Positions 6,169 to 57,909 of a stretch of DNA of 64,000 nt are shown here, piece after piece. The notes beneath the pieces are model-generated. The model made no database searches and was not told where the DNA came from. It saw nothing but the letters and a program-made list of their open reading frames with translations. Positions within the stretch are counted from its first letter, which is position 1, and every line of letters begins with the position of its first letter. A program made the translations under genes and the position numbers. This DNA is from a virus: IMG/VR virus record IMGVR_UViG_3300014565_000223. The stretch is one strand, 5' to 3'.

Positions 6169-7148
6169 ATGGAAGGTTGGAGCATGAATTAAAATTAAAT
6201 AAGAATGTTAAGAAAATTCTTAATGATATGCCACAATGCGTGAGTGATTTTTATATGAGTATTCAGGCTGTTCGCAGCCCGAATACTTGTTTAAATTATG
6301 TCAGAAAACTTCATCATTTCTTAGATTATATAGATGTAGAAGATATAAGCGAAATTGACGCAGATGATATCGCAAGGTATCTGGAGCATATTAAATACGT
6401 AAAAGATGGTAATGGTGAAATTAAAAAGTCGTCTGTGGCATATACTAAATTGGTATGTTGCACATTAAATAGGTTTTTTGATTTTTTGTATCGGAGAGGA
6501 GATATTGAAAGGAATCCGATGGACAATGTAAACCGGCCTATTAGAAAAGACTCGATTAAAAGAGTGTTTTTATCAATGGATGATTTAAATGGAATATTGG
6601 GTGCCGTAAAATATTCTTACATGCCAAAAGAATGGCATTCAAGAGATTATGCTATATTATATTTATTTATGGTTACCGGCATGAGAAAAACTGCATTAAG
6701 CGAAATTAACTTAAGTGATTTAAATTTTGAGACTCACAATTTGACTATTATCGACAAGCGAGATAAAGAACAGGTATATCAATTAAATGATGATTCCATA
6801 CGTGTATTAAGAGATTGGATCCTTGATCGAGATAAAATACTATATAATATGGGGATTAAAGAGGATGCTCTTTTTATATCAAAAAATGGAAAACGTATGG
6901 ATCCACAAACGATCTATTGTATGGTAGTCAAATATGCCGAGAAAGGAATTGGTAAACATGTGTCTCCGCATAAGTTAAGAGCTGCTTTTGCTTCATTATA
7001 TTATAAGGAGACAAAAGATATCGTTGCTACGAAAAATGCTGTAGGGCATGCGGATATACAGACAACCAGTATTTATACAGTTGAAGAAAATAACTCAAGA
7101 AAGGAAGCAACGGAGTTCATGTCGAAAAATTTATCATCAAAAATATAG
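6165..7148 (+). CDS. tyrosine site-specific recombinase / integrase (XerC/D-like)
   Basis: C-terminal HKLRAAFAS and GHADIQTTSIYT fit the R..HxxR..Y catalytic signature. ATG 6165 with GGAG RBS (track start 6120). Confidence 0.75.
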   Translation: MNGRLEHELKLNKNVKKILNDMPQCVSDFYMSIQAVRSPNTCLNYVRKLHHFLDYIDVEDISEIDADDIARYLEHIKYVKDGNGEIKKSSVAYTKLVCCTLNRFFDFLYRRGDIERNPMDNVNRPIRKDSIKRVFLSMDDLNGILGAVKYSYMPKEWHSRDYAILYLFMVTGMRKTALSEINLSDLNFETHNLTIIDKRDKEQVYQLNDDSIRVLRDWILDRDKILYNMGIKEDALFISKNGKRMDPQTIYCMVVKYAEKGIGKHVSPHKLRAAFASLYYKETKDIVATKNAVGHADIQTTSIYTVEENNSRKEATEFMSKNLSSKI

Positions 7149-8467: not shown

Positions 8468-9379
8468 ATGTATAACGAAGATAGAAAACAAAGGTTTTAC
8501 GAATTTAAGTTAAAAACTGTTGCAAGCGTTACTCCTCTTGTGCCTAGATTTAAGAGAGTTGCGCCGTTTGAACATATGTATCAAAAGGATTTATGTGACT
8601 TTAATTTAAATGAGATTACAGAAATGTATAAGTTGTTCAAATTTACAACATTAGAGTCCATTATTGTAGTAAATAATACTCTTACACAATATACGGACTG
8701 GTGTGTTAATGAGAATTTAGTGTTAAATGGACAAAATATCTATGCAACTATCACACCTGATATGCTGGCAGCACTATTAAATAAGACATTGTTAAATCAT
8801 CAGATTGTATCAAGAGACACGATTTTAACATGGATCGAAGCATTAAAGAATCCTAGAGATCGATTCATGATTCTGAGCATTTTTGAATATGGCAAGTCTA
8901 AAGATTTTGAAGACACGATTAGAGCAAAACTTGATGATATCGACGTAGAAAATCATACAATGAAATTGTATTCCGGAAGAGTTGTAAATGTAAGTGAAGC
9001 ATTAATTTTAACTGCACAAAAGAGTAATATGACAATGGAATTAACATATCCATATGGAACTAAATCCAAACTCATGGATGATGGAACCATTATAAAAAGA
9101 TCTCATATTGTAAAAGATGATCCGCATTGTCTTGGAAGGCAAATGTATAATTCATTAGCAGCAGCATTGAAGTCTATAGATGTATCATATATGACTGCTG
9201 AAAAAATTAACATTTCCGGACAAATTCATATGACAAATGAATTAATCCGGAAGTATAATTCAAATAAAAACAAGATTTTATATGATGTTGAAACTCGGTC
9301 TATGATTGAACACCAATATGGAATTAAGATTAATAGACCTTCATATTTTCTTAAAAAATATGGTGACTATTTAATATAG
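8468..9379 (+). CDS. hypothetical protein (303 aa)
   Basis: TAAATG junction with the upstream gene. Confidence 0.5.
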   Translation: MYNEDRKQRFYEFKLKTVASVTPLVPRFKRVAPFEHMYQKDLCDFNLNEITEMYKLFKFTTLESIIVVNNTLTQYTDWCVNENLVLNGQNIYATITPDMLAALLNKTLLNHQIVSRDTILTWIEALKNPRDRFMILSIFEYGKSKDFEDTIRAKLDDIDVENHTMKLYSGRVVNVSEALILTAQKSNMTMELTYPYGTKSKLMDDGTIIKRSHIVKDDPHCLGRQMYNSLAAALKSIDVSYMTAEKINISGQIHMTNELIRKYNSNKNKILYDVETRSMIEHQYGIKINRPSYFLKKYGDYLI

Positions 9380-9812: not shown

Positions 9813-11813
9813 ATGAACAAGATTGAAGAAATGAAAGCATTGGTTGAAAAACTTAATCAGTACCGAGATGCTTATTATAATAATGCAGAAAGTATTGTTA
9901 CGGATCATCAGTATGATGATCTGTGTGATCAGTTGGAAAAAATGGAAAAAGAAACAGGAGTTATTTTAAGTAATTCTCCAGTCCATAGTGTTGGATATGA
10001 AGTAAAAAGTAAATTAGAGAAAATTGAGCATTCACATTTAATGATGTCTCTTGATAAAACTAAAGATGTGAATATACTTCGAAAATTTATTGGTGATAAA
10101 GATTCTTTGCTAATGTGTAAGATGGATGGATTGACAATTCTTTTGACGTATGAAGATGGAGAGCTGATCCAGGCTGAAACTCGCGGAAACGGCGTCACAG
10201 GAGAAATTATTACTCACAATGCAAAGGCGTTCGAAAATATTCCTATGCATATTAATCAGAAAGGCCACGTTGAAATTGAAGGAGAAGCTATTATTACATA
10301 TACAGATTTTGAGAAAATTAATAATTTAATTAAACACGAAGAAGATAGATATAAGAACCCGCGAAATCTTGCTTCAGGATCAGTCAGACAGCTAGATAGT
10401 AAGATAGCAGCCAAACGTCATGTTCGTTTTATAGTATGGAAGGTACCTGCCGGTATGGATGAACTACCTTTAATGTCAGCAAGATTTGAAAAAGCAAGAG
10501 AACTTGGATTTGATATTGTACCCTATATTCGTGTATATAAAGAAAATCAGAATCTTGAAGAGCTTATTAATCTGTTAAAGGAAAAGGCAGCATACTTATC
10601 TTATCCAATTGATGGGCTTGTTGCTGCATATAATGATATCGCTTATGGATTATCACTTGGAGTCACAGATAAGTATCCACGTCATTCTCTGGCATACAAG
10701 TTCTATGATGATGAATTTGAGACAGTTTTGACTGATATTGAATGGACTATGGGTAAATCTGGACAATTAACGCCTACAGCAGTTTTTGAACCGGTCGATA
10801 TTGATGGAACATCTGTAAGCAGAGCGAGTCTACACAATGTGAGTATATTCAAAGGATTTTATCTCCATAAATATGATACCGTATCTGTGTATAAGGCAAA
10901 CCAGATAATTCCGCAGATTTCTCAAAACATAACAAGAGGTTATAATACCGGTGAAAAGTTTATAATTCCTAAAATATGTCCAATCTGTGGAGAACCAGTG
11001 TCTGTCGTAAAAGAGAACGATTCTGAAGTATTGATGTGCATGAATGCTGGATGCAAAGGCAAACTTTTGGGTGAGATGAATGCTTTTGTAGGGAAAAAGG
11101 CCCATGATATTAATGGATTATCTGAGGCCACATTGCAGCTATTGATTGATACTGGGCTTGTGACATCACCAATTGATCTGTATTATTTGAAGGATCATTC
11201 TACAGAATTGTCCAGATTACCTAGAATGGGAGCAAAGAAAATTGCGAATATTTTAGATTCTATTGAGTCTAGCAGGAATACTACCATAGAAAAATTTATT
11301 GTAGGATTAAATATTCCGTTAATTGGTGGTAGAGCTGCAAAGGATATTGCTAGATATGAAGAAATAAGAACCAGGGAATTAGGAATGCTATATCCATTTG
11401 AAACTTTTATTAAAGATGCTGCTTCTGATTTTAATTTTACCTGTATTGAAGGATTAGGGACGGAGCGAAATATTTCTATCCATAGATATTTTAAGGAAAA
11501 TTATGATTACGTTGTTGCTTTGGCAGAACAGTTCATATTTTCGAAACTTAATAATGATAAAATATCTTCTGAAAGCGATTCATTGTCCGGAAAGAAATTC
11601 TGTATCACTGGGAAGTTACATATTTTTGCTAACCGGGATGAACTTGTGGCGGATATAGAATCAAAAGGAGGGAAAGTTGTGTCCGGAGTTACAAAGGCAA
11701 CTGATTATCTAATTACCAATGATAAAAACAGTGGATCTAGTAAAAATAAGAAAGCTTCTGAGTTGAATATTCCTATTATCAGTGAAGAAGAATACAAAAA
11801 CAAATTAAATTAA
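9813..11813 (+). CDS. ligA: NAD+-dependent DNA ligase
   Basis: KMDGL adenylation motif, CPICGEP...C..C zinc finger, HhH region and C-terminal BRCT (GKKFCITGKL). N-terminus typical of LigA. Confidence 0.9.
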   Translation: MNKIEEMKALVEKLNQYRDAYYNNAESIVTDHQYDDLCDQLEKMEKETGVILSNSPVHSVGYEVKSKLEKIEHSHLMMSLDKTKDVNILRKFIGDKDSLLMCKMDGLTILLTYEDGELIQAETRGNGVTGEIITHNAKAFENIPMHINQKGHVEIEGEAIITYTDFEKINNLIKHEEDRYKNPRNLASGSVRQLDSKIAAKRHVRFIVWKVPAGMDELPLMSARFEKARELGFDIVPYIRVYKENQNLEELINLLKEKAAYLSYPIDGLVAAYNDIAYGLSLGVTDKYPRHSLAYKFYDDEFETVLTDIEWTMGKSGQLTPTAVFEPVDIDGTSVSRASLHNVSIFKGFYLHKYDTVSVYKANQIIPQISQNITRGYNTGEKFIIPKICPICGEPVSVVKENDSEVLMCMNAGCKGKLLGEMNAFVGKKAHDINGLSEATLQLLIDTGLVTSPIDLYYLKDHSTELSRLPRMGAKKIANILDSIESSRNTTIEKFIVGLNIPLIGGRAAKDIARYEEIRTRELGMLYPFETFIKDAASDFNFTCIEGLGTERNISIHRYFKENYDYVVALAEQFIFSKLNNDKISSESDSLSGKKFCITGKLHIFANRDELVADIESKGGKVVSGVTKATDYLITNDKNSGSSKNKKASELNIPIISEEEYKNKLN

Positions 11814-12555: not shown

Positions 12556-14622
12556 ATGTTTAAAGATTTTGTAAAGGCAATCCAGAAAAATTTACAGCAG
12601 ATGTCTAAAGATTCTTCAAGATTATTCACAGTAAATGTGGATACCGAGGAGCTTTATAATTTATATCTGGATTCGTTTCCGGCAGGTACAAATGAAATTT
12701 ACAGAGAAAGAAGAGAATATGACTGTAGTTGCTGTAGACATTTTATCAGAGACGTTGGTAACGTTGTATCTATTAAAAATGGTGAGTTACATACCATTTG
12801 GGGAATTAATCCAGTATCAGATGATAAATATAATGTAGTCGCAGCTGCGCTTGATGCCTATGTAAAACAGAAAGCGGTATTAGGGGTATTCCTCAAAAAA
12901 GAGAAACGAATTGGTACTCCTGAAAATAGAGAAATGCTCCCGACAGGAAAAATTAATAAATACGAGCATTTCTTCGTAGATCTGCCAGAAATTTGTATCT
13001 TTAAGGAATGTTATGGACATACACTTGAAGGTGATTTAAGTCAATTCAGAGATGTCCGTAATGTATTTAAACGTTCTCTTGATGAAATTAGTAAAGAAGC
13101 TGTAGATACTGTACTTGAACTGATTGCTCAAAATTCTTTATATAAAGGTGCCGAATGGAAAAAGCAACTTACTGAATTTAAGAATTATCAGAAAGAATAT
13201 GGAAAGCTTACGGATGAACAGAAAGAACTTTGGATCTGGGAAAAGTCAATTGCTGCAGGTGCCGTTATCGGTAAGATTCGTAACCATAGTATTGGAACAT
13301 TGCTGGTAAATATTTCCGAAGGAATGGATCTTGACCTTGCCGTTAGAAAATATGAGCAGATTGTAGCCCCTGTAAATTATAAACGTCCAAAGGCAATTTT
13401 TACAAAGAAGATGCTTGAAGATGCAAAGAAGACTATTACAGAACTTGGTTATATGGATTCATTACAGAGAAGATTTGCTACCTTGGATGATATCACAGTG
13501 AACAATATACTTTTCTCTAATAAAGACGCAGCAAAGAGAATTACCGGCGCTATGGATTTGTTTGATGAAATGGAACAGGATGTTGCAATTGATCCAAAAC
13601 GATTCTCTAAGGTAGAGGAAATAAGTGCAGAAGATTTCATTAAGAATGTTCTGCCTGTAGCGAAAGAATTGGAAGTATATTTGGAGAATAAACATATTCA
13701 GAATATGGTATCTTTGATTGCTCCAGAAGTTGCTGATGCGAAAACAATGTTCAAATGGAACAATGGAATGTCTTGGGCGTATACCGGTAATATTACAGAT
13801 TCAGATATCAAAGAAAATGTAAAAGCTGCTGGTGGTTCAGTCACAGGCATTGTAAGATTTTCTATTCAATGGAATGATAAAGATGGAAAGGATAATTCTG
13901 ACCTTGATGCACATTGTATTGAACCAAAAGGTGGAGAGCATATTTATTTTGGTCACAAAAAAGCACGATCCGGTGGAGAATTGGATATTGATATTACTCA
14001 GCCAGTTGATCAGTGCTGGAATAGTAATGGAGTTGCCGTTGAAAATATTACATTTCCATCTAAAGAACGCATGATTCCTGGTACATATAAGTTTTTTGTA
14101 AATCAGTTCGCATACAGAGGATCTCAGGGATTTAAAGCCGAAATCGAAGTAAATGGAGAAATTCATTCTTATGAATATAATACTCCAGTACGTGGCGATG
14201 TAGATGTTGCAGAAGTAATTCTTGATCAGGCAGGTAATTTTAAAATTGTGGACAAACTTCCAGGAAATTGTTCTATGATCAGTAAAGATGTATGGGGAAT
14301 TAAAACTCTGCAGTTTACACCGGTATCTGTTGTATGCTACTCACCAAATTACTGGGATGAACAGAAGGGAATTGGTCATCAGCACTTATTCTTTATGCTG
14401 AAGGACTGCATCAATCCAGAAGAGCCGAATGGATATTATAATGAATTCTTGAAACCGGAACTTGAGCAGCACCGAAGAGTATTTGAAGCGCTTGGAGCAA
14501 AAGCACATGTAAAAGATGTTGATGATCAGCTTTCAGGAGTAGGATTTTCACTTACAAAGAGAAATGATCTAATTATTAAAGTAAAAGGCGCTACAGAGCG
14601 AGTATTAAAAATCAAATTCTAA
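12556..14622 (+). CDS. large hypothetical protein (688 aa) with N-terminal CSCCRHF motif
   Basis: AAGGAGATAAAAATATG RBS. Confidence 0.55.
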   Translation: MFKDFVKAIQKNLQQMSKDSSRLFTVNVDTEELYNLYLDSFPAGTNEIYRERREYDCSCCRHFIRDVGNVVSIKNGELHTIWGINPVSDDKYNVVAAALDAYVKQKAVLGVFLKKEKRIGTPENREMLPTGKINKYEHFFVDLPEICIFKECYGHTLEGDLSQFRDVRNVFKRSLDEISKEAVDTVLELIAQNSLYKGAEWKKQLTEFKNYQKEYGKLTDEQKELWIWEKSIAAGAVIGKIRNHSIGTLLVNISEGMDLDLAVRKYEQIVAPVNYKRPKAIFTKKMLEDAKKTITELGYMDSLQRRFATLDDITVNNILFSNKDAAKRITGAMDLFDEMEQDVAIDPKRFSKVEEISAEDFIKNVLPVAKELEVYLENKHIQNMVSLIAPEVADAKTMFKWNNGMSWAYTGNITDSDIKENVKAAGGSVTGIVRFSIQWNDKDGKDNSDLDAHCIEPKGGEHIYFGHKKARSGGELDIDITQPVDQCWNSNGVAVENITFPSKERMIPGTYKFFVNQFAYRGSQGFKAEIEVNGEIHSYEYNTPVRGDVDVAEVILDQAGNFKIVDKLPGNCSMISKDVWGIKTLQFTPVSVVCYSPNYWDEQKGIGHQHLFFMLKDCINPEEPNGYYNEFLKPELEQHRRVFEALGAKAHVKDVDDQLSGVGFSLTKRNDLIIKVKGATERVLKIKF

Positions 14623-14655: not shown

Positions 14656-15150
14656 ATGAAATTTAAAGAAGCATTTGAAGAAATGAAATCTGGAATTCCA
14701 GTAAAACTTCCGTCATGGGCGGGTTATTGGTGGTGGGATGAAGAATCCCAGACAATCCTTATGTACACAAAAGATGGCGGCTGTCTGGATATAAGAGAAA
14801 CACAGAATGTGGAGTATACGCTTCAGAATATTCTTTCCGATGAGTGGGTTTATGCGGATAGTCGGAACTGTCCAATACTTGGTGGAGAAGCAACATTCTC
14901 ATTCGGAGAAGCGATTAAGTACCTGAAAAGAGGTATGAAAGTAGCGAGAAAAGGATGGAATGGAAAGAAACAGTACATTCAGCTTGCTACTGGGATTTCA
15001 TATAAGACTACTGACGACGAGATTGTAAATTGTGAGCATGATGCAATCGGAAATAAAGCCATCGCTTTTGTTGGAACATCTGGCGTACAGATGGGATGGC
15101 TTGCTACCCAGTCTGATATGCTCGCAGAAGACTGGATGTTTGTTAAATAA
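14656..15150 (+). CDS. DUF2829-like protein, tandem duplicated module
   Basis: MKFKEAFEEMKSG...WAGYWW and FGEAIKYLKRGMKVARKGWNGK both match the DUF2829 (Gp49-like) signature. Confidence 0.5.
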   Translation: MKFKEAFEEMKSGIPVKLPSWAGYWWWDEESQTILMYTKDGGCLDIRETQNVEYTLQNILSDEWVYADSRNCPILGGEATFSFGEAIKYLKRGMKVARKGWNGKKQYIQLATGISYKTTDDEIVNCEHDAIGNKAIAFVGTSGVQMGWLATQSDMLAEDWMFVK

Positions 15151-16107: not shown

Positions 16108-18729
16108 ATGAAGAACGGCTTATCAAATGAACAGGTCGAAGAGAGTCGAAGATTACATGGAAGTAACAAGCTTCCTGAACCTGAATTGAAAAAATGGTAT
16201 CATTTTGCTAAGGAAGCATTAACTGAACCAATTACTATGATTCTAATAATAATTGCTTTATTCCAGTTAGTTTTAGGAGCTATGGGAGTAATGTCTCTTT
16301 CTGAACCTGTAATGATTATAGTAGTTTTAGCTATTGTTACTGAAATTGCTGTTAAGACAGGTCTAGGCATACAGAAATCTGCAGCAGAGTTAAGAGCAAA
16401 AACGGCAGTTAGATATTGTGATGTTGTCCGAGATGGAAGCGTACAGACAATTAATAAAGATGATCTGGTAGTAGGTGATTTAGTTCTATTGAGAACTGGA
16501 CAAGAGATTTTCGCAGATGGTTTTATTGTTGAAGGAGAAATTTCTGTTAATAATGCCGCTATCAATGGAGAGACAAAAGAATGTAGAAAAATTCCTAGTG
16601 CTAATTATAAACATGTTAAAACAACATCTACTGCTGCATATACGGATCAGTGTTCTCTCTTTGCAGGAACAGTTATTATGTCTGGTGAAGGAAAAATGAT
16701 TGTTACAGATGTTGGTGTTAATACAGTTAACGGTGATACTCTTGTCAAAATGCAGACTTTAGAGCCTCCTAAGACAGCTCTTGATATTGCTCTGGATCAT
16801 TTGTGTGATTTTATTTCAAAATGGGGAACAATTGCGGCAGCATTAGCATTTGTAATTATGACAATTGCAGGTATCTTAAATGCTGGAAGTTTAAGTCAGT
16901 ATTTCTCAGGAAACATTCTTGAAAATATTCAGAAAGTAGCACAGAATACCTCAAATGCATTAACAATTATTGTTGCGGCTGTACCGGAAGGTCTGCCACT
17001 CATTGTAAAACTTGTAACTAAACAGAATGTATCGACAATGGAAAAATTTAATATTCTTGCGAAGAATACTGGTAAAATTCCTGAATTGGCGTATGTTAAT
17101 TTAATTTGTACGGATAAGACAGGAACTCTCACAACAGGTGAAATGACTCCGGTAGCTATGATCAGTGGAGATTGTCATGATATTCTTAACGAGAAAAATG
17201 CGCTCAGACAAATGATTGATGTAAATATCTGTATGAATAATAGTGCAGTATTTGATTCCAATGGAAATATTACTGGTGGAAACTCTATTGACAGAGCAGT
17301 TCTTGGTATGATTACTCCAGAAGAAGTAAATGATATCAGCAATAGATTTAATATTAAAGAAAAACTTCCATTTAGCAGTAAAAATAAATATTCTTCTATT
17401 ACGTTAAACGATGAAGAAAATAATATTCTGAAATTTTATAAAGGTGCTCCAGAGAAAATCATTGCTAAATGTACACACATTGTTGATGCAGACGCACATT
17501 TAAGGGAATTTAAAGAAGAAGATAAAAATGAACTAAAATCATATATAAAAGGTATGACAGAAAAAGCAATGAGGTGTATTGCTTTAGCGGTATCAAATGA
17601 ATCAAATGATAGTGAATTGCCAGATATGGGATTGCTTGGTGTGATTGGTGTTGTGGATCCGGTTAGAAATGAGGTGCCAGAAGCTGTGAGTATAGCACAT
17701 AAAGCCGGTATACAAGTAATTGAAATCACCGGAGACTGCATGGAAACAGCAAAAGCAGTTGCAGCAGAAGCAGGTATTTATAAACCTGGAGATCTTGCAA
17801 TTACAAATGATGAATTTGAAGCAATAACAGATGAAAAAGCGAAAGAAATTATTCCGGATTTAAGAGTAATCTCCAGATGTTCACCAAATACAAAGCTTCG
17901 TCTTGTAACATTAGCACAAGAAATTGGAATGTCTGTTGCTATGACCGGTGACGGTGTAAATGATGCGCCTGCACTAAAGAAAGCAGATGTAGGCTTTGGA
18001 ATGCAGGATGGGTCTGATGTGGCAAAAGAAGCAGCAGATATTGTTTTGACAGACAATAATTTTGCAAGTGTGGTAAAGGCAGTCGAACTTGGTAGAACAT
18101 TTATGCATAACATTATGATGTTCCTTGAATTCCAGCTGCCTATCAATATTTCGTTGTTGATCTTAAGTATGGTATTTCCAATTATTTCTGGTGGCTCTGC
18201 TCTATTAGCAGCAGTTCAGATCCTTATTGTAAATATCATCATGGATTCACTTAACTCATTAAGCTTTGGTGGAGAACCGCCAAAAGAGGAATATATGAAT
18301 GAAGAACCTATCATGAAAGGATCCGGATTATTTATCCGTGGAGCGAAAGGGAGAATTGCATTAAGTTCAATTGTATTTATTGCTTTATTTGGTGTAATTA
18401 CATTTGGTCCAGTTGGAAATATGTTTGCAACAAAACTTTCGGCTATGACAGCGAGATTCGCTTTATTGTGTTTAATGGCAGTATTTAATGGATTCACTAT
18501 TAGAACAGATAGTATGAATCTTTTCAAAGGAATTAAAAATAACAAATTATTTGTGTATATCGCATTGGGTATTTTTGCAATGACTGTAGTTTTGTGTAAC
18601 TTTGTAGGAAATCTAGTACAGACAACTCCAATGGATGTTAAACAGTGGATTATAGTCTTAGTGACAGCATTTATGGTTGTGCCTGTAGATTGGATTAGAA
18701 AAGCAATTTGTAAGAAAGGAAGTAACTAA
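16108..18729 (+). CDS. P-type cation-transporting ATPase (type II, Ca2+-ATPase-like)
   Basis: DKTGTLT phosphorylation site, PEGLP in M4, TGDxxxTA, GDGVNDAPALKKADVG hinge. ~10 TM segments; 873 aa. Confidence 0.9.
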   Translation: MKNGLSNEQVEESRRLHGSNKLPEPELKKWYHFAKEALTEPITMILIIIALFQLVLGAMGVMSLSEPVMIIVVLAIVTEIAVKTGLGIQKSAAELRAKTAVRYCDVVRDGSVQTINKDDLVVGDLVLLRTGQEIFADGFIVEGEISVNNAAINGETKECRKIPSANYKHVKTTSTAAYTDQCSLFAGTVIMSGEGKMIVTDVGVNTVNGDTLVKMQTLEPPKTALDIALDHLCDFISKWGTIAAALAFVIMTIAGILNAGSLSQYFSGNILENIQKVAQNTSNALTIIVAAVPEGLPLIVKLVTKQNVSTMEKFNILAKNTGKIPELAYVNLICTDKTGTLTTGEMTPVAMISGDCHDILNEKNALRQMIDVNICMNNSAVFDSNGNITGGNSIDRAVLGMITPEEVNDISNRFNIKEKLPFSSKNKYSSITLNDEENNILKFYKGAPEKIIAKCTHIVDADAHLREFKEEDKNELKSYIKGMTEKAMRCIALAVSNESNDSELPDMGLLGVIGVVDPVRNEVPEAVSIAHKAGIQVIEITGDCMETAKAVAAEAGIYKPGDLAITNDEFEAITDEKAKEIIPDLRVISRCSPNTKLRLVTLAQEIGMSVAMTGDGVNDAPALKKADVGFGMQDGSDVAKEAADIVLTDNNFASVVKAVELGRTFMHNIMMFLEFQLPINISLLILSMVFPIISGGSALLAAVQILIVNIIMDSLNSLSFGGEPPKEEYMNEEPIMKGSGLFIRGAKGRIALSSIVFIALFGVITFGPVGNMFATKLSAMTARFALLCLMAVFNGFTIRTDSMNLFKGIKNNKLFVYIALGIFAMTVVLCNFVGNLVQTTPMDVKQWIIVLVTAFMVVPVDWIRKAICKKGSN

Positions 18730-18730
18730 A

Positions 18731-19498
18731 ATGGGATTTTTGGGAAAATTATTCGGAAAAAAAGATGAGGAAACAGCAGTAGAGTTATCTTCTGCTGTAA
18801 CTCAGCAACCTGTATATGAAGAAAAATTACAGACAATTGATATGTCTAAGCACAATGAAAATCTTGGCAAAGTACTTATTGATATGTCTAAGGGAAGCAA
18901 GATTGATATGACAAAACATACGGCTAGAGTAGCTCTTGCAATGGATTATTCAGGAAGTATGGATTGGCTGTATGATAATGGATCTGTACAGGAAACCATT
19001 TCTCGTTTGTTGCCTATTGCTCTAAGATTTGACGATAATGGAGAACTTGAGAGTTGGCTGTTCTCAAATGGAGCAGAGCGCTTAAAAGCTGCTAACGCTG
19101 ATAATTATAGTAGTTATGTTAAAAATGTTATGAAAAAAGCTCATATGTATATGGGTGGTACTAATTATGCTCCTGTATTGAAAGAAATGGTTACATATTA
19201 TAAAGATATCGAGCCAAGTGAGATTCCAGCATTTATCATCTTTATTACAGATGGTGAGAACAGTGATACTTTTGCCACCAATGCAGTTATTAAAGAGCTT
19301 TCAGAGTACAACATCTTCGTGCAGTTCATAGGAATTGGAGATGAAGATTTTGACTATTTAAAATCTCTTGATGGTATGAAAGGTAGAAAACATGACAACA
19401 CCGGTTTTACAGCAGTAAAAGACATGAATAAAATGTCTGATGAGCAGCTGTATACAGAGATTCTTCGTCAGTATAAAGATTGGCTCAATAAAAAATAA
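18731..19498 (+). CDS. von Willebrand factor A domain protein (TerY-like)
   Basis: MIDAS-like DYSGSM; sits beside a TerD-domain gene. Confidence 0.6.
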   Translation: MGFLGKLFGKKDEETAVELSSAVTQQPVYEEKLQTIDMSKHNENLGKVLIDMSKGSKIDMTKHTARVALAMDYSGSMDWLYDNGSVQETISRLLPIALRFDDNGELESWLFSNGAERLKAANADNYSSYVKNVMKKAHMYMGGTNYAPVLKEMVTYYKDIEPSEIPAFIIFITDGENSDTFATNAVIKELSEYNIFVQFIGIGDEDFDYLKSLDGMKGRKHDNTGFTAVKDMNKMSDEQLYTEILRQYKDWLNKK

Positions 19499-19557
19499 TT
19501 CTATACTGTAAATAATAAATTATATATAAATAACGTAAATTAAAGGAGATTAAGATT

Positions 19558-20196
19558 ATGGCAACAATTAATATGAGCAAAAAACAGAAAATCAGTATGA
19601 CAAAGGAAGATGGATCTGCAGTAAAGAATTTTTTTATTGGTGTGAACTGGGAGCAAAATAGATATGCCGGAGAAGCCGATATTGATTTTGACATCAATGG
19701 AATGCTTACTAATGGAGATCGGAAGGTGACATATCCGGGAGATTTGGTAAATTATAATACATATGGAGATGGATCTGCTTATCCGTGGATTGATTATTCC
19801 GGAGATAATCTCACTGGAAATGATTCTCAGGGCATGATGTTTAATGGAAAACATTACGATGAATATTTTATTGTCCACGCAGATCAGTTTCCGGAGAATA
19901 AAACAGACTTTACCATTTGTCTTACTATTTTTAGAGCGGTACAGCGCCTTCAGAATTTTGGTATGGTAAGTAATGCAACTATAATGATCTGTGATTATGA
20001 TAATCCAGACGGAGATAAGTACGAATATAATCTGTCTGAGAATGAGAATTTTGAAAATCTGAACGCTGTAGAGATGGGAAGGCTTTATAAATACGGAGAT
20101 GGATTTAAATTCCAGGCACTTGGATCAGGATATACCGGAGGAATGACAGAATTGTTTAAGAATTTCGGTCTTGACATTGATGAGGGAAGGGATTAA
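19558..20196 (+). CDS. TerD-domain protein
   Basis: ISMTKEDGSAVKNFFIGVNWE...DIDFDINGML matches the TerD/CAPAB signature (GLgWD...DLD). Confidence 0.6.
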   Translation: MATINMSKKQKISMTKEDGSAVKNFFIGVNWEQNRYAGEADIDFDINGMLTNGDRKVTYPGDLVNYNTYGDGSAYPWIDYSGDNLTGNDSQGMMFNGKHYDEYFIVHADQFPENKTDFTICLTIFRAVQRLQNFGMVSNATIMICDYDNPDGDKYEYNLSENENFENLNAVEMGRLYKYGDGFKFQALGSGYTGGMTELFKNFGLDIDEGRD

Positions 20197-20198
20197 TC

Positions 20199-20942
20199 AT
20201 GAAAATTACATTTGGAGCAGTATTATTAATTGCTATTATTGTTGCAGCGTTTTTCTTTTTCAGAAGTAAAACAGGGAAACGAGTAAAAACAAGAGCAACG
20301 GGTACAGCAACGGAGGCTATCATTAAAGATGCCTCCACCCCGGAAGGGGCAAAAGCTTATTATAACGAAGCTATTGATGCTAAAAAGGATCAGTATAATA
20401 AGGCAAATCAGATCTATACACAGATGCTTGGCAAGATCACTTCTTATGAGGAGCAGCTTCGAGCATTACAAAAAGAAAATATGCAGCTTAATTTAAACAT
20501 TAACGCTTGTATCGATAAAGGCGATGATGAAGGGGCTAAAGTATATTTGAAGAAACAGCAGGATGCAGAAGATAAGATTGCTGTTTTAAAAGATACACTT
20601 AAAGAACTTAGATCTAATGCAACCGCTCAAAAGGAAATGCTTGACAGTGCGCTTCAGGCGGTAAATGATCTTAAGTCTGAAAAGGATAAGGCAATTCTTA
20701 CTCTTGAAACGGCGCAGGTTACAAAATCCTTACAGGTTACTCCTGGCGCTTCAGACAAGGAAGAAGACAAAATGCTTGAAGTTGTTCGTGAAGGTATCAA
20801 AAAGCAAAAAGAAGCTGCAGACGGTACAAAGGCTGCATTTGATGCATCTGCAGATGTACAGCAGAAGCGCCTTGATAAGAAGATGAAAGACGAGGCCATT
20901 GATAAGAAACTGCAGGAGTTAAAAGCAAGGAAAGGAAAATAA
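20199..20942 (+). CDS. PspA/IM30-family protein with N-terminal TM helix
   Basis: N-terminal hydrophobic helix, then a long amphipathic coiled coil with PspA-like KGDDEGAKVYLKKQQDAEDKI. Confidence 0.55.
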   Translation: MKITFGAVLLIAIIVAAFFFFRSKTGKRVKTRATGTATEAIIKDASTPEGAKAYYNEAIDAKKDQYNKANQIYTQMLGKITSYEEQLRALQKENMQLNLNINACIDKGDDEGAKVYLKKQQDAEDKIAVLKDTLKELRSNATAQKEMLDSALQAVNDLKSEKDKAILTLETAQVTKSLQVTPGASDKEEDKMLEVVREGIKKQKEAADGTKAAFDASADVQQKRLDKKMKDEAIDKKLQELKARKGK

Positions 20943-21613: not shown

Positions 21614-21710
21614 AAATACATAGTCAAGGATGACAACAGCACAGAGGAGTGAAAGCTCCCTGTGCTAAATAAAAAGAAGAAAGAAATTTAATTATACAAA
21701 CAATGAATGT

Positions 21711-21795
21711 AGCGGTATGATGAAATTGGCTAGACATAATAGACTTTGACTCTATTGAGCAGTAGCTCGTGTGGGTTCGAATCCCACTACCGCCG
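21711..21795 (+). tRNA. tRNA, type II (long variable arm), anticodon UUG by manual fold; atypical
   Basis: T-arm GTGGG-TTCGAAT-CCCAC. Acceptor AGCGGTA/TACCGCC with an A1.C72 mismatch. 3-bp D-stem ATG/CAT. Anticodon stem ATAGA/TCTAT with loop CTTTGAC. Variable stem-loop GAGC-AGTA-GCTC. Confidence 0.6.
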
Positions 21796-21874
21796 TTTGG
21801 CAAGTATTTTATACAAATATACTCCAGCCGAATTGCAGAGAAATATAATTTAATTATACAAAAAGGAGATAAAA

Positions 21875-22993
21875 ATGAGTAAAATTATTAGTACAGGTTC
21901 CACTTTTAGAATCTACGGAGATGATCTTGTAACACATAATCAACTTCCGGCACAAATTTATTCTATCAGATGTTCACAGATGACAGGATTTTATTTAGAG
22001 AAACATGCTGATATTGAGATCAATGAAGATAAAATATACGGTGTGCACATGGAAAAAGTAAATAAAGTATTAAATGCTTTTCCAAATTTCAATAAAAATC
22101 TTGGCGTGATCTTATCTGGAGCCAAAGGAATTGGCAAATCTTTATTTTCTAAGATTCTTGCTGTAGAAGCTGTAAAAAAAGGATTACCAGTAATTATTGT
22201 TGATACATATATCCCTGGAATTGCTAATTTTATTGAAGAAATTGAACAGGAAGTATTAGTAATGTTTGATGAGTTTGATAAAACATTTGGTAATATTAAA
22301 GCTGCTGATGGTATGGCTAATCCACAAACAGAGCTGCTTACATTATTTGATGGATTAGCTCAAGGGAAAAAGTTATATGTTATTACTTGTAATAATCTTA
22401 ATACTCTGAGTGATTATTTGGTAAATAGACCTGGAAGATTTCATTATCATTTTAGATTTGATTATCCGACAGATTCTGAAATTACAGAATATATGAGAGA
22501 CAAGTTACACGAAGAATACTATGGCGAAATTAGTAAGGTAATTGCATTCTCTAAAAGAGTCAGCTTGAATTATGATTGTTTAAGAGCTATTGCATTTGAA
22601 CTTAATACAGGCTTACAATTTCAAGAAGCAATTAAAGATATGAATATCCTTCATATAAATAATACTGTTTATATAACTACTTTGTATACTAAAGATGGTA
22701 AAAAAGATACAGAAGAAAAAACTCTTGACTTGTTTGATAAGACTTCTAATCATAGTTTATATTTTACAATAGATGGAAAATGGTTCTATACAAAATTTTC
22801 TGGTGTTGATGTAAGATATGATTTTGACAGACACATTGATTTTGTTGATGGAAAAGATGTTGAAATTATTCCGGATGAAGACTATGCGGATCTTACAAAA
22901 GAAGAAAAGAAAAAATACGAAAATATTAAAATTGATCGTATCGTTTTTGCAAGAAAAGAAGAAAAGGGACTTCATTATAATCTTTCTGTATAA
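21875..22993 (+). CDS. AAA+ family ATPase
   Basis: Walker A GAKGIGKS, Walker B IIVDTY...FDEFD. Confidence 0.6.
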   Translation: MSKIISTGSTFRIYGDDLVTHNQLPAQIYSIRCSQMTGFYLEKHADIEINEDKIYGVHMEKVNKVLNAFPNFNKNLGVILSGAKGIGKSLFSKILAVEAVKKGLPVIIVDTYIPGIANFIEEIEQEVLVMFDEFDKTFGNIKAADGMANPQTELLTLFDGLAQGKKLYVITCNNLNTLSDYLVNRPGRFHYHFRFDYPTDSEITEYMRDKLHEEYYGEISKVIAFSKRVSLNYDCLRAIAFELNTGLQFQEAIKDMNILHINNTVYITTLYTKDGKKDTEEKTLDLFDKTSNHSLYFTIDGKWFYTKFSGVDVRYDFDRHIDFVDGKDVEIIPDEDYADLTKEEKKKYENIKIDRIVFARKEEKGLHYNLSV

Positions 22994-23160: not shown

Positions 23161-23240
23161 GCGGATATGACGGAACTGGCAGACGTAGAAGGCTCAAACC
23201 CTTCGGAGAAATCGTGTGGGTTCGAATCCCACTATCCGTA
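23161..23240 (+). tRNA. tRNA-Leu (anticodon CAA), type II
   Basis: Acceptor GCGGATA/TATCCGT (G1.U72). D-arm ACG-11 nt loop with GG-CGT. Anticodon stem GAAGG/CCTTC, loop CTCAAAC. T-arm GTGGG-TTCGAAT-CCCAC. Confidence 0.75.
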
Positions 23241-23622: not shown

Positions 23623-23675
23623 ACAGATATTGTTACATTTCTATATTGTGGGTGTAATTATAACGCCCACTACAT

Positions 23676-23749
23676 GGAAACTTAGCTCAGTTGGTTAGAG
23701 CAACCGGCTCATAACCGGTCGGTCCTGGGTTCGAGTCCCAGAGTTTCCA
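23676..23749 (+). tRNA. tRNA-Met or Ile2 (anticodon CAT), elongator-like
   Basis: Acceptor GGAAACT/AGTTTCC. D-arm GCTC-AGTTGGTTA-GAGC. Anticodon stem ACCGG/CCGGT, loop CTCATAA. T-arm CTGGG-TTCGAGT-CCCAG. G1-C72 paired. Confidence 0.85.
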
Positions 23750-23833
23750 TTAAAAGAAAAATGAAAGGAGAGATATAAAATTCTTATAAATAATCCCGTA
23801 AAAATAATAATTTAAAATAAAGGAGATTAAATT

Positions 23834-24613
23834 ATGGCTATCGTTGGTGCAATCTTAGGTGATATTGCAGGTTCACAATATGAATTTGGTAGACCAATTG
23901 ATTTAGATTGGAAGAATTGTAAGTTATTTACTGATAGATGTTATTTTACAGATGATACTGTAATGACACTTGCTGCTAAATTAGCAATTATTAATAATAA
24001 ATCTTTCTCAGATTCATATAGAGAATGGGGAAGAAAATATCCAAATGCAGGATATGGAAATAATTTTGAAACGTGGTTAAGATACGATGATGAAACTGCA
24101 TATGGAAGTTGCGGTAATGGATCTGCAATGAGATGTTCTTATATTGGAGAACATTTTAATACAGAAAAAGAAGTTATCGAATGGGCTACAAAGTCTGCTG
24201 AGTGTACACATAATCATCCAGAAGGAATTAAAGGGGCGGTTGCAACGGCAATGTGCATTTATATGGCAAGAACAGGTGTTACAAAAGCAGAAATCTATGA
24301 ATATGTGAAGAAATACTATCCAAAAGATGATTACAAATATAGTGTTGAATATAAAATTGAAGACTATAGAAAGACATATCAGTGGAATGAAATTTGTCAA
24401 GGAAGTGTACCTGTTGCAATAAGATGTTTTCTGGAAAGTGATGATTATGAAAGTTTCTTGCGAAATGTATTCTCATTAAAGTGTGATATGGATACGTTAT
24501 GTGCTATAGGTGGTGGAATTGCGGAAGAATTTTATCACGGAACTGGATTAGACAATGATTACTTACTTGGACATTACCTGAATAGACAATTGTACAGGAT
24601 TGTAGAAATGTGA
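23834..24613 (+). CDS. ADP-ribosylglycohydrolase (DraG/ARH family)
   Basis: N-terminal GAILGDIAGSQYEFG plus YFTDDTVMTLA, typical of ADP-ribosyl-[protein] hydrolases. Confidence 0.75.
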   Translation: MAIVGAILGDIAGSQYEFGRPIDLDWKNCKLFTDRCYFTDDTVMTLAAKLAIINNKSFSDSYREWGRKYPNAGYGNNFETWLRYDDETAYGSCGNGSAMRCSYIGEHFNTEKEVIEWATKSAECTHNHPEGIKGAVATAMCIYMARTGVTKAEIYEYVKKYYPKDDYKYSVEYKIEDYRKTYQWNEICQGSVPVAIRCFLESDDYESFLRNVFSLKCDMDTLCAIGGGIAEEFYHGTGLDNDYLLGHYLNRQLYRIVEM

Positions 24614-24621
24614 GGTTAGAT

Positions 24622-24807
24622 ATGAAATCTTATATAGGATCATTATTGATAGGAATACTATTATCATTAATTTTTACAATTGGTATGTCTTTTTCAAGAC
24701 TCGATATTCTTGATGATAGAAAGAGACTTGTTTTGGCTATCGGTGATTTTATTATTATGTGTATATTATTTTCGTTGTTTATTACGGGAATGTTTTTAAT
24801 AGGATAA
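24622..24807 (+). CDS. small membrane protein (2 TM)
   Basis: ATG 24622 with GAGGTTAG RBS (track start 24610 is GTG); hydrophobic. Confidence 0.4.
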   Translation: MKSYIGSLLIGILLSLIFTIGMSFSRLDILDDRKRLVLAIGDFIIMCILFSLFITGMFLIG

Positions 24808-24847: not shown

Positions 24848-25162
24848 ATGAAAGTTAAGAAACTATTAATTGGATTGCTTGTATCAGGATTGGCACTTTC
24901 GTTTATTGGATGTGGTGACAAAGTTATAAATGATAAAGATGAAAAAGTTCAGTCATTCGGTCAATTTATTGGAATTAAGAAAACAAGAATCGAACTATAT
25001 GGTGTGCATATACTCAGTCAATATTTTGTATATGATAAAACCACTAAAATTGTATATGTAGTACAAAGTTCAGACCGCTATAGTGGCATTACACCATATT
25101 ACGTATTAGATGAAAATGGCAAACCAGAAATCGCAATCTATGGAGAAAATTATAATGGATAA
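24848..25162 (+). CDS. putative lipoprotein
   Basis: Signal peptide with lipobox LSFIGC; GAGAGGTGACAAAATG RBS. Confidence 0.5.
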   Translation: MKVKKLLIGLLVSGLALSFIGCGDKVINDKDEKVQSFGQFIGIKKTRIELYGVHILSQYFVYDKTTKIVYVVQSSDRYSGITPYYVLDENGKPEIAIYGENYNG

Positions 25163-25233
25163 GGAGAAAGAATAAGTACACATAATTCTGTTGTGACTGC
25201 AGTACGACAGGTCATGCATGTAAAAAAAAAAGA

Positions 25234-25303
25234 TGACATATAGTCTAACGGAAAGAACGTGGCTTTTTAAGCTGAAATATTGGTTCGAATCCAATTGTGT
25301 CAT
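25234..25303 (+). tRNA. tRNA-like element (possible tRNA-Lys UUU or degenerate tRNA)
   Basis: Clean T-arm ATTGG-TTCGAAT-CCAAT and acceptor TGACATA/TGTGTCA (one G.U), but only a weak anticodon stem (2 G-C plus 2 G.U) around loop TTTTTAA. Preceded by an A10 run. Confidence 0.35.
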
Positions 25304-25380
25304 ATTTGTAATGATGTCGCGCGGATCATTACAGAAGAAAATAGTAACTACTGAAATGTATATTTAAGGAGGCAGTAAAC

Positions 25381-25886: not shown

Positions 25887-26807
25887 ATGGAGCAGAAGAA
25901 ATTTATGGATATTCAACGTCTGAAAGAAGGATATGCAGATGGATTTGTACCGGGTGACTTAATTGTTATCCAGGAAAAATTTGATGGATCTAATGCAGCA
26001 GCTAGATATGATGCAGAGACTGGCAAAATGGTAGCTTTTTCCAGAAGACATACGTTGAATCAGAACAATACATTAAATGGTTTTTATAATTATGTGCAGG
26101 AGTTAAATCCTGAAGATTATAAAGACGTTCCGGACTATGTAATATTTGGAGAATGGTCTGGAGCAAGAAATGCGATTATTTATTATCCAGAAAATACTAA
26201 GAAATGGTACGTATTTGATATTTATGATGTAAGGGAAGAAAAATATCTTCCTCAGTCAGAAGTAAAGGCATTTGCAGAAACGCATGGACTTACATATATC
26301 AATACATTTTATGTTGGACCATTTATTAGTTGGGAACATGTGCAAAGCTTTATGGATCATCCGGGGTATGGAGAGATTCAGGAAGGAATTGTAATTAAAA
26401 ATCAAACAAGATTAAACGATCCGAATAGCAGATTACCATTTGTAGTGAAAATCGTTGGAGATAAATTTCATGAAGTTGCAAAAATGAATCATGTTAAAAA
26501 GATTCAGGATCCGCAAAAGTTGCAAGAACGAACAGAAGCACAGGAACTTGTAAAATCTGTCGTGACGCGGCGTAGAGTTGAAAAAGAGTTATATAAAATG
26601 CGTGATGAAGGAATCATCCCAACAGAGTGGTGTGAACAGGATATGAAAACTGTTGCAAGGAATCTTCCAAACAGAATTTATACAGATTGTGTAAAAGAAG
26701 AACCGGAAGTAGTTCGAGCAGCAGGACAATATTTTGGAAAATTCTGTTCCGTTATTTCGATGAATTACGCACGAGAGATTATTCTCGGTCCGACTGGAGC
26801 AAAGTAA
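25887..26807 (+). CDS. ATP-dependent RNA ligase (Rnl2-like) or small nucleic-acid ligase
   Basis: Covalent nucleotidyltransferase motifs: I KFDGSN (lysine motif), IV EGIVIK, V FVVKIVGDKF. Size and layout fit Rnl2. Confidence 0.55.
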   Translation: MEQKKFMDIQRLKEGYADGFVPGDLIVIQEKFDGSNAAARYDAETGKMVAFSRRHTLNQNNTLNGFYNYVQELNPEDYKDVPDYVIFGEWSGARNAIIYYPENTKKWYVFDIYDVREEKYLPQSEVKAFAETHGLTYINTFYVGPFISWEHVQSFMDHPGYGEIQEGIVIKNQTRLNDPNSRLPFVVKIVGDKFHEVAKMNHVKKIQDPQKLQERTEAQELVKSVVTRRRVEKELYKMRDEGIIPTEWCEQDMKTVARNLPNRIYTDCVKEEPEVVRAAGQYFGKFCSVISMNYAREIILGPTGAK

Positions 26808-57369: not shown

Positions 57370-57909
57370 ATGAATTTACAAAGTATTAGTAGATATATAA
57401 GTCTTATATTAAGACATAAGCCTGAAGTTATTGGTATTACTATAGATGAACATGGTTGGGCGAATGTAGAAGAACTGATTCAGGGTATCGCTAAAAACAA
57501 TCCCGGATTCAACAAAGAATTTTTAGAGGAAATTGTACGGACTGACAATAAGCAGCGATATTCTTTCAATGATGACAAGACATTGATCAGAGCGAATCAG
57601 GGACATTCAATTCCGGTAGATGTAGAACTGGAAGAGAAAGAGCCACCTAAAATTCTTTATCATGGAACTGGCGAGAAATATATAGCGTCTATTGATCAGA
57701 ATGGACTGATTCCTAAAAGTCGTTTATATGTTCATTTGTCAAAAGATGTTGAAACCGCCAAAGCTGTCGGCAAGAGACATGGTAAAGAAGTTGTTTATTC
57801 TATCAATAGTGAACAGATGTACAAAGATGGATACAAATTTTACTTATCTAAAAATGGAGTTTGGCTGACTAAAAGGGTTCCAGTGAAATATTTAATGAAG
57901 GAGGTATAA
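57370..57909 (+). CDS. RNA 2'-phosphotransferase Tpt1/KptA family
   Basis: N-terminal [13 protein letters not shown] signature of Tpt1; HGT and R-rich catalytic region; 179 aa. Confidence 0.7.

Follow-up and report, generated by a model that had tools for sequence, protein, structure and literature searches.

Known ADP-ribose erasers and the phage enzyme

DraG and ARH1, two arginine-specific hydrolases, belong to the same Pfam family and have the same fold as the protein described here, an ADP-ribosylglycohydrolase (hereafter ARH) encoded at positions 23834 to 24613 of a 64-kb stretch (64,000 nt; the window) of IMG/VR virus record IMGVR_UViG_3300014565_000223, which represents part of a phage genome of ~156 to ~177 kb. 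A nearer counterpart is ARH3 (ADPRS/ADPRHL2), the vertebrate hydrolase of ADP-ribosylserine, poly(ADP-ribose), and O-acetyl-ADP-ribose, which resembles phage ARH in its all-helical fold and in its Glu, T-D-D, G-N-G, and D-x-D-T motifs, although the phage protein is ~90 residues shorter (259 vs ~347 to 363 aa), shows ~20 to 26% identity, and is of bacterial/phage origin. ARH3 also removes ADP-ribose from the phosphate ends of RNA and DNA (PMC11833690), which is the activity that we tentatively propose for phage ARH. The same holds for the ARH3-like SCO5809 of Streptomyces coelicolor, which reverses the ADP-ribosylation of 5′- and 3′-phosphate RNA ends (PMC11833690); SCO5809 differs in that it is not phage-borne and has no reported RNA-repair gene context, and we liken it to phage ARH by description, not by sequence. 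Among viruses, the family annotation of phage ARH is shared by the ADP-ribosyltransferase (ART)-ARG pair of Aeromonas phage Aeh1, by the ARGs of giant viruses, and by phrog_6572. However, Aeh1 has an adjacent ART toxin, whereas ARH of the window has none, which also sets it apart from the DraT-DraG and Tre1-Tri1 pairs; unlike DraG, it has no DraT/nitrogenase context in the window. ARGs occur in about 5% of jumbo phages, and direct evidence for their function in phages was lacking according to a 2022 survey (Iyer et al., PMC9503650); in the literature that we searched, no biochemical characterization of a phage PF03747 protein was found. A precedent for the logic of phage-borne, orphan ADP-ribose erasers in counter-defense is provided by the NADAR protein AdfN (T4 gp30.3) and by DarG-like macrodomains (PMC11825919), which differ from ARH in having unrelated folds and in acting on base-linked ADP-ribose on DNA.

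The ARH gene (259 codons with an ATG start; predicted isoelectric point of the product, 5.1) belongs to a known enzyme family, in which it is nothing unusual, and its product is very probably a catalytically competent ADP-ribosylhydrolase of the ARH fold that depends on Mg2+/Mn2+, with ARH3 as its nearest characterized relative. Residues 2 to 230 of the 259 matched the Pfam profile ADP_ribosyl_GH (PF03747) with an E-value of 2e-28 and a score of 100.2 bits (gathering cut-off, 26.2 bits), and the protein matched phrog_6572 ("ADP-ribosylglycohydrolase") with an E-value of 1.6e-44. An AlphaFold2 model built on 24 homologs, with a mean predicted local distance difference test (pLDDT) score of 92.1 and a predicted template modeling (pTM) score of 0.92, consisted of 15 helices and zero strands, and Foldseek assigned it to the ARH fold with a probability of 1.00 and template modeling (TM) scores of 0.72 to 0.76 to ARH3 and DraG (0.76 for DraG structure 2woe). 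Among solved structures, ARH3 is by far the nearest relative: its crystal-structure sequences were matched with an E-value of 3e-12 by phmmer using the single sequence and of 4e-23 using the family profile, and the profile scores were 78 to 85 bits for ARH3, 47 for Lmo0067, 44 for MJ1187, and a weak 26 and 23 for ARH1 and DraG, respectively. Strong sequence alignment to ARH3 was limited to residues 2 to 155 and the C-terminal motif; because of the shorter length and low identity, we refer to the protein as ARH3-like and not as an ARH3 ortholog. An earlier, first-pass annotation of this DNA had assigned the protein to the DraG/ARH family. That family call stands, but within the family the protein is not DraG-like: the DraG equivalog TIGR02662 was rejected (33 bits vs a 337-bit cut-off), and annotation of the 64-kb window yielded neither DraT nor nif genes.

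The predicted active site is complete. In an HMMER alignment with human ARH3 (2foz/6g1p), E17 corresponds to the catalytic/metal-site Glu (E41), T39-D40-D41 to T76-D77-D78, D218-M-D220-T221 to D314-x-D316-T317, and GSCGNGSAMR to the ADP-ribose-binding loop GSYGNGGAMR, while THNHPEG falls on THASSLG in the region of the conserved "TH" motif, a characteristic of the ARH family (PMC9503650). Across the conservation alignment (24 homologs, 62 to 93% identity), E17, D40, D41, S92, G94, N95, G96, H126, H128, E130, D218, D220, and T221 were invariant, and T39 was kept in at least 90%. The di-metal Asp/Thr residues, on which the first-pass annotation had hung the assignment, thus align with their ARH3 counterparts and are conserved, so that no metal ligand is missing. 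A ratio of nonsynonymous to synonymous substitution rates (dN/dS) of 0.07 to 0.15 against diverged copies indicates purifying selection and, together with the conserved metal-binding and catalytic residues, leads us to predict that the gene almost certainly encodes an active enzyme. Pseudo-enzymes do exist in this family, for example, ARH2 and the jellyfish crystallins, and a catalytically dead ARH-fold protein could act as a binder or sponge; with every metal-binding and catalytic position intact, this explanation is scarcely credible here.

Gene company and candidate substrates

We consider it likely that ARH works within a phage network of nicotinamide adenine dinucleotide (NAD)/ADP-ribose conflict and repair and, as a more tentative proposal, that it specifically removes ADP-ribose from the phosphate ends of damaged tRNA or other RNA. 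The window itself offers a context for such a role: four tRNA genes surround ARH, an RNA ligase gene follows downstream, and a KptA/Tpt1 RNA 2′-phosphotransferase gene lies in a block of NAD-related genes (Table 1). KptA co-occurs on four IMG/VR contigs of the window's phage type that are listed for both ARH and KptA, and we propose the PF09414 RNA ligase as a functional partner of ARH.

Neighboring genes were compared in 79 IMG/VR loci and additional metagenome loci, with ARH dereplicated at 90% identity into 36 lineages, using our own open reading frame (ORF) calls and BLAST single-linkage clustering; the loci from the large collections are the best 80 matches listed and are biased toward close relatives of the query. 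Counted by lineage, the most widespread neighbor families were CCA-adding enzymes (13 of the 36), RlaP (PF10127; 12), DNA methyltransferases (11), a 318-aa protein (10), and a polynucleotide kinase (PNK)-like protein (6). Repair genes were found within 10 kb of ARH in 13 lineages, often adjacent and in varied order, such as RlaP-318-CCA-ARH, ARH-RlaP-318-CCA, RlaP-ARH-CCA, Thg1-ARH, CCA-Metallophos-x-ARH, and PNK-sigma-ARH with a T4-type Rnl1 just upstream. In a distant lineage (L087; 47% identity), ARH, a PF09414 RNA ligase, and a PNK lie within 4.4 kb. CCA-adding and Thg1-like enzymes repair tRNA 3′ and 5′ ends. RlaP extends damaged 3′ ends of tRNA by one or two nucleotides (PMC12776372), and given these activities, the recurring company of ARH is tRNA-end repair. 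In addition, ARH adjoins an NAD-dependent DNA ligase in three lineages and a SLOG protein in two, and its general association is with tRNA-repair enzymes and NAD/ADP-ribose enzymes.

The first-pass annotation had placed ARH between tRNA genes, in an island with an AAA ATPase and a lipoprotein, and we recovered all of these elements: ARH is flanked by tRNA-Met and tRNA-Lys, ARAGORN and Rfam agreed on all four tRNA genes around it, and both protein-coding neighbors are present. The location between tRNA genes is a peculiarity of the window's phage type, however; as a family-wide property, the "tRNA island" was rejected, with a tRNA gene within 3 kb of ARH in only 3 of the 36 lineages.

The reciprocal view came from 77 new loci fetched with the RlaP profile, all from similar-sized phages. 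In these loci, the region after the CCA-adding enzyme gene holds a TARG1-like macrodomain (PF01661) in 10 cases, a SIR2 sirtuin (PF02146, E = 3e-56) in 5, and ARH in 1, and no sampled locus holds two of the three, which are thus mutually exclusive in this sample. In ARH-less phages, the same region also accommodates DHH/DHHA1 phosphoesterases (35 members across all clustered loci) and a calcineurin-like phosphoesterase; examples include SIR2 at L241:11629-12369 and Macro at L278:5121-5582 in the L237-L284 set, and DHH/DHHA1 at L225:10293-11216. The folds of the TARG1-like Macro and SIR2 proteins that share the slot after RlaP-318-CCA differ from that of ARH, and neither protein occurs in the window. 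TARG1 shares the ability to de-ADP-ribosylate phosphate ends of RNA (PMC11833690), whereas a sirtuin is a transferase/deacylase and not an eraser. Of the contextual arguments for a functional tie between ADP-ribose chemistry and repair, this interchange of analogous ADP-ribose enzymes next to a tRNA-repair operon is the strongest. The interchange also fits what Iyer et al. predicted for phage sirtuins and KptA, namely a role in NAD-dependent RNA repair; their survey drew no link between the ARG domain and RNA repair (PMC9503650). Neither the 259-aa subfamily beside tRNA-end repair modules nor the alternation of ARH, TARG1-like Macro, and SIR2 at one slot was found in the literature searched.

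The slot also bears on a housekeeping role, in which ARH would act on no macromolecule and would instead hydrolyze O-acetyl-ADP-ribose, alpha-NAD+, or ADP-ribose-phosphate by-products of sirtuin or KptA. ARH3 does hydrolyze O-acetyl-ADP-ribose (PMC9503650), KptA is encoded in the genome, and sirtuins occupy the equivalent slot of relatives. Since no sampled locus combined ARH with SIR2, ARH is not the clean-up partner of the sirtuin there, and a frequently exchanged cassette (see below) fits poorly with small-molecule housekeeping, which we regard as highly unlikely.

Between RlaP and the CCA-adding enzyme, and always there, sits the 318-aa protein (L006:5677-6633 and homologs), which was present in 60 of the 77 RlaP loci. 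It has many invariant residues (e.g., F-S-I-D-M-x-K-A-N-F and S-K-Y-x-R-Q-V) and gave zero sequence matches in Pfam, PHROG, and PDB; it is probably an uncharacterized component of tRNA repair.

For the removal of ADP-ribose from RNA ends, the following course can be envisaged. The 5′- or 3′-phosphate at the ends of damaged tRNA or other RNA would become capped with ADP-ribose, either because KptA/Tpt1 of the phage itself leaves such a dead-end product in a side reaction or, alternatively, through the sirtuins and PARP-like enzymes of relatives or a host ART, and the cap would block ligation and end repair. Two metals, bound by T39/D40/D41 and D218/D220/T221 together with E17, would activate a water molecule to cleave the ribose C1″-O-phosphate bond; this binuclear-metal attack at C1″ is what knowledge of the family would lead one to expect. 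The RNA ligase, like the CCA-adding enzyme, RlaP, and Thg1 of relatives, would thereby regain a ligatable or extendable end, and the freed ADP-ribose could be recycled by the NAD+ salvage genes of the phage. Human ARH3, the bacterial ARH-like SCO5809, TARG1, and MacroD-type macrodomains strip ADP-ribose from 5′- and 3′-phosphate RNA ends that were ADP-ribosylated by a KptA/Tpt1 homolog or PARP14, whereas neither RhsP2-type 2′-O-ADP-ribosyl RNA nor guanine-linked ADP-ribose was a substrate of the ARH enzymes (Lu et al., NAR 2025, PMC11833690).

Several observations weigh against this substrate. In 23 of the 36 lineages, ARH has no repair gene within 10 kb; apart from repair genes, the neighbors include DNA methylases, Tad2, an NAD-dependent DNA ligase, and a WGR-PARP protein with a macrodomain. 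The 64-kb window lacks the RlaP/CCA/Thg1 module, its KptA is 33 kb away from ARH, and the closest ARH copies also occur in phages without a close KptA among the matches listed. The association is one-sided, with ARH within 8 kb in only 1 of the 77 RlaP-module loci, which makes ARH an optional addition to the module and no part of its core. Under random placement in a ~150-kb genome, ARH would fall within 10 kb of the module with a (rough) chance of ~13%, compared with the 36% observed, a difference that is only suggestive because accessory genes cluster and the loci are not independent; many of them come from one broad group of ~150-kb gut phages and are not phylogenetically independent. In bacteria (at least 591 GTDB species), the homologs adjoin Macro/vWA or NrtR genes, not RNA-repair genes. 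Most characterized ARH enzymes act on proteins, and we infer the substrate and physiological role of phage ARH from gene context. Finally, ADP-ribose-capped RNA ends are possibly erroneous products, whose physiological role in bacteria is not established (PMC11833690).

In its broadest form, the proposal would be that phage ARH3-like hydrolases and the slot-sharing TARG1-like macrodomains constitute a previously unrecognized viral step in RNA repair and counter-defense, which uncaps ends for ligases, the CCA-adding enzyme, RlaP, and Thg1, with a more radical variant in which ARH would be a second fold, after RyDEP, that hydrolyzes 2′/3′ cyclic ADP-ribose (cADPR); we consider this generalization doubtful. 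If ARH does unblock ADP-ribose-capped RNA ends, the mostly in vitro phenomenon of RNA phosphate-end ADP-ribosylation would acquire a biological meaning, the capping of RNA ends would matter in bacteria as a lesion of physiological relevance or as a weapon of the host, and a new enzyme class would be added to phage tRNA repair. If ARH instead reverses a host transferase or destroys cADPR signals, it would represent a new enzymatic anti-defense. The protein is small, soluble, and readily assayable, with clear active-site mutants.

One gut-phage lineage (L050 and also L051-L062) suggests a different partner. Within L050:3786-7424, an NAD-dependent DNA ligase, a TARG1-like macrodomain (5781-6200), and a WGR+PARP protein (404 aa, with a PARP catalytic domain and an apparent H-Y-E triad) form a block, and an ARH 57% identical to that of the window follows 4 to 6 kb downstream (10001-10777); such a phage would possess a writer of eukaryote-like PARP type together with two erasers. 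ARH of the window might likewise reverse or regulate ADP-ribosylation by an Alt/ModA-like or PARP-like transferase of its own phage, which we judge very unlikely. The L050 PARP, used as a tblastn query, matched nothing in the window or in any other ARH lineage, and annotation of the 64-kb window revealed no Alt/ModA-like or other protein ART, PARP, macrodomain, or sirtuin. The T4 Alt/ModA-like partner offered by the first-pass annotation thus finds no candidate there; KptA/Tpt1 was the sole ART-superfamily gene found among the window annotations.

The main suggestion of that annotation was that ARH frees phage or host proteins of the ADP-ribose that a host ART, acting in defense or as a toxin, has attached to them, and so restores their function during infection. 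Nearly all characterized ARH members, including DraG, ARH1, ARH3, and Tri1, act on ADP-ribosylated proteins (PMC9503650), and Iyer et al. predict that phage ARG domains favor macromolecular conjugates (PMC9503650). Mobility as an accessory cassette under purifying selection is typical of counter-defense genes, a Tad2-like anti-Thoeris gene ~9 kb upstream marks the region as one that holds anti-defense genes, and bacterial homologs sit with Macro domains and NrtR-type ADP-ribose sensors. However, no cognate transferase or target was identifiable, PADLOC returned zero matches for ARH or its neighbors, and the neighborhoods point to no particular protein target; the likeness to ARH3 argues against arginine-linked substrates, though not against serine-linked or other O-linked ones. 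Taken together, protein counter-defense seems to us somewhat unlikely as the role of ARH.

The bacterial homologs, examined at 80 loci, are mostly stand-alone genes in variable contexts. Their recurrent neighbors were a Macro-domain protein (6 of the 80 loci), a vWA protein (4), and NrtR-type Nudix regulators (5). Annotation of the recurrent neighbor families revealed no conserved transferase partner in the 80 bacterial loci, and no ART family was among those annotated across the 80 bacterial and 79 viral loci. Extensions of the 83 longer homologs were mostly unannotated, with a few carrying DUF6508, SseB, HD_4, Macro, DUF1810, OGFr_N, or ARPP-1. These partners and fusions fit ADP-ribose processing without pinpointing a substrate, and the Macro/NrtR-type partners match the "ARG-centric" systems of Iyer et al. 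(PMC9503650). In several Clostridia (L145:5222-7789, L154, L186, and L197), genes for Macro (~330 aa) and vWA (~225 aa) proteins are directly followed by a 259-aa ARH, and the five loci with an NrtR-type regulator are different ones.

A further candidate substrate is an immune signal. ARH3 cleaves the 1″-2′ ribose-ribose bond of poly(ADP-ribose), chemically the same bond as in 2′cADPR. ARH might accordingly cleave the ribose-ribose O-glycosidic bond of the Thoeris/TIR signals 2′cADPR or 3′cADPR, or an ADP-ribose-histidine conjugate, so that the defense would be silenced and ADP-ribose supplied to the NAD+ reconstitution genes of the phage. The phage encodes Tad2-like, PRPS-like, NAMPT-family, NMNAT-like, and NadE proteins. 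The predicted Tad2-like gene implies that its hosts use TIR/Thoeris-type signaling immunity, and because Tad2-like and NAD-rebuilding genes occur together, the hosts probably deploy NAD-based immunity. Phage RyDEP glycosidases carry out such a cleavage with an unrelated fold and feed NAD+ synthesis, but no ARH-fold enzyme has been reported to cleave these signals, the RyDEP preprint noting none known (bioRxiv 10.64898/2026.05.28.727677), and Iyer et al. hold soluble derivatives to be unlikely targets of phage ARGs (PMC9503650). Just 2 of the 36 ARH lineages have Tad2 at a distance of up to 10 kb from ARH, and in the window, ARH is ~25 to 37 kb from the NAD-salvage block. We therefore rate hydrolysis of immune signals as unlikely.

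Cassette mobility and distribution

ARH resides on a small, horizontally exchanged accessory cassette of large Firmicute-type gut phages. By blastn, the cassette showed 91 to 93% nucleotide identity to phages with unrelated flanks (L001 [MT835469.1], L002, L022, L026, and L027). The homology begins abruptly at 23781, 53 nt 5′ of the ARH start codon, and stops either at 24620-24675, when ARH alone is shared, or at 25178, when the membrane-protein and lipoprotein genes are included. ARH copies at least 93% identical as protein occupy at least three different neighborhoods. The occurrence of the same cassette between unrelated flanks indicates recent exchange between co-circulating phages, which is typical of accessory or conflict genes. 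The small two-helix membrane protein co-travels with ARH in some copies of the cassette, and the lipoprotein gene forms the distal end of its longest shared version; the AAA ATPase is kept beside ARH only in the window's phage type.

Upstream of the ARH start codon, at a distance of 8 nt, we read a consensus Shine-Dalgarno sequence (AAAGGAG). An own promoter was not apparent, with 35 promoter-like sites against 30.4 ± 6.1 in shuffled sequence (no excess), and no terminator of its own was recognizable, the sole nearby "terminator" call being the T-arm of tRNA-Met.

These features bear on the notion that ARH serves lysogenic conversion or immunity, such that ARH expressed from the prophage would guard the lysogen against ADP-ribosylating toxins of competitors, in the manner of a Tri1-like orphan immunity protein. 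The phage is probably temperate, given the integrase-family genes in the window and a related contig (L102:18801-21476) on which a phage end with Xis and integrase genes is followed by bacterial NADH-dehydrogenase-type genes. The membrane protein and lipoprotein of the cassette are typical moron company, and homologs occur in early/lysogeny regions of smaller temperate phages (L015-L017). Nevertheless, we find this role quite improbable: ARH is co-oriented with, and embedded among, tRNA, RNA-ligase, and replication genes, has no recognizable terminator and only a shuffled level of promoter-like sites, and lacks a toxin partner, and Tri1 structures were absent from the PDB sequence matches of the protein with either the single sequence or the profile.

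Uncultured material contains the 259-aa ARH subfamily in abundance. When 1.84 billion cluster representatives were scanned in full, 5,932 relatives passed E ≤ 1e-3, and 1,170 of these passed E ≤ 1e-30; the identical protein was indexed in 254 blocks of the metagenome collection, identical copies were found on IMG/VR viral contigs of 145 to 177 kb, and relatives were present on 528 IMG/VR contigs. Proteins of about equal length that are 41 to 70% identical occur in at least 591 GTDB species, which belong to many phyla. Among the reference viral structures of BFVD, matches did not exceed 20% identity, and none came from the 259-aa subfamily. The window derives from a very common uncultured human-gut phage, and its phage origin is backed by PHROG matches for most neighbors and by a phage-type replication module in the flanks. 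In a megablast search of GenBank phages with 6 kb and 24 kb of the window, only the ARH cassette was matched, in MT835469.1, and the replication region was unmatched.

Other genes of the window

With about 33% GC, the window is rich in AT, and practically all of its genes lie on the (+) strand. The positions of ARH, its motifs, and the other features are collected in Table 1.

Table 1. Features of ARH and of the remainder of the 64-kb window
Feature	Position	Strand	Basis or remark
ARH leader	23781..23833	+	sharp start of homology to phages with unrelated flanks (blastn); holds AAAGGAG
ARH3-like ADP-ribosylglycohydrolase gene (ARH)	23834..24613	+	ORF, PF03747, phrog_6572, AlphaFold2 model, Foldseek, dN/dS
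E17 codon	23882..23884	+	aligns to ARH3 Glu41; invariant in 24 homologs
T39-D40-D41 codons (FTDDT), first metal-binding motif	23948..23956	+	alignment to ARH3, conservation
S92-C93-G94-N95-G96 codons (GSCGNGSAMR)	24107..24121	+	alignment to ARH3 ADP-ribose loop
H126-N-H128-P-E130 codons (THNHPEG)	24209..24223	+	"TH" motif region, alignment
D218-M-D220-T221 codons (CDMDT), second metal-binding motif	24485..24496	+	alignment to ARH3, conservation
tRNA-Gln(TTG)	21710..21796	+	ARAGORN, Rfam (49 bits); 85-87 nt
AAA ATPase	21875..22993	+	PF00004 E = 3e-9; phrog_2376 E = 4e-112
tRNA-Leu(CAA)	23161..23240	+	ARAGORN, Rfam
tRNA-Met(CAT)	23675..23750	+	ARAGORN, Rfam; end 84 nt 5′ of ARH
Small membrane protein, two helices, 61-65 aa	24610..24807	+	start overlaps/abuts ARH stop
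Small lipoprotein	24848..25162	+	N-terminal lipobox LSFIGC (read from translation); weak DUF6440 match
tRNA-Lys(TTT)	25233..25304	+	ARAGORN, Rfam; 620 nt 3′ of ARH
RNA ligase	25887..26807	+	PF09414, motif I EKFDGS; 1.3 kb 3′ of ARH
Phage_integrase gene	6120-7148		tyrosine-recombinase type; flanks the DndB-like gene
DndB-like gene	7187-8467		between two tyrosine-recombinase-type genes
Integrase-family gene	8468-9379		MrpR-like N-terminal core-binding domain
NAD-dependent DNA ligase	9813-11813		
Tad2-like (Thoeris anti-defense 2) protein	14656-15150		PF11195 E = 1.4e-23; ~9 kb 5′ of ARH
Calcineurin-like phosphoesterase	48620-49375		NAD block
Isochorismatase/PncA-like	50044-50706		NAD block
Adenylosuccinate synthase	52262-53371		NAD block
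PRPS-like	53372-54169		NAD block
NAMPT-family	55413-56888		NAD block
KptA/Tpt1 RNA 2′-phosphotransferase	57370..57909	+	PF01885; phrog_5470 E = 2e-84
SLOG (YAcAr) protein	58827-59252		NAD block
NadE	59936-60697		NAD block
NMNAT-like cytidylyltransferase	60932-61507		NAD block

Spanning ~48.6 to 61.5 kb (48620-61507), the NAD block looks like a phage pathway for NAD+ reconstitution or salvage, judged from its predicted products: its PRPS-like and NAMPT-family pair resembles Adps/Namat of NARP1, and its NMNAT-like protein resembles NARP2. On the 3′ side of the RNA ligase lies the replication module, with AAA_24, SPbeta YorH, a DnaB-like protein, and PolIII-alpha. Genes for the anaerobic ribonucleotide reductase NrdD (42021-44198), its radical-SAM activase (44842-45357), guanylate kinase, and dUTPase are also present and fit an anaerobic Firmicute host.

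Among the tRNA genes, tRNA-Gln(TTG) is unusually long for a class I tRNA, and an extra arm or insertion is possible. A gene for a 688-aa protein (12556-14622; DUF8224, phrog_1735) is located upstream of the Tad2-like gene, and the stretch at 16108-20942, from the Tad2 gene to a conserved 173-aa gene, appears as a swappable cargo cassette. In the window and in L100, its cargo comprises a P-type cation ATPase, vWA-TerF, TerD, and a PspA-like protein, and in otherwise near-identical phages (L098:1583-7094 and L099:2859-7102), it comprises an ABC permease with its ATPase and an OmpA-domain protein, with or without a GIY-YIG endonuclease.

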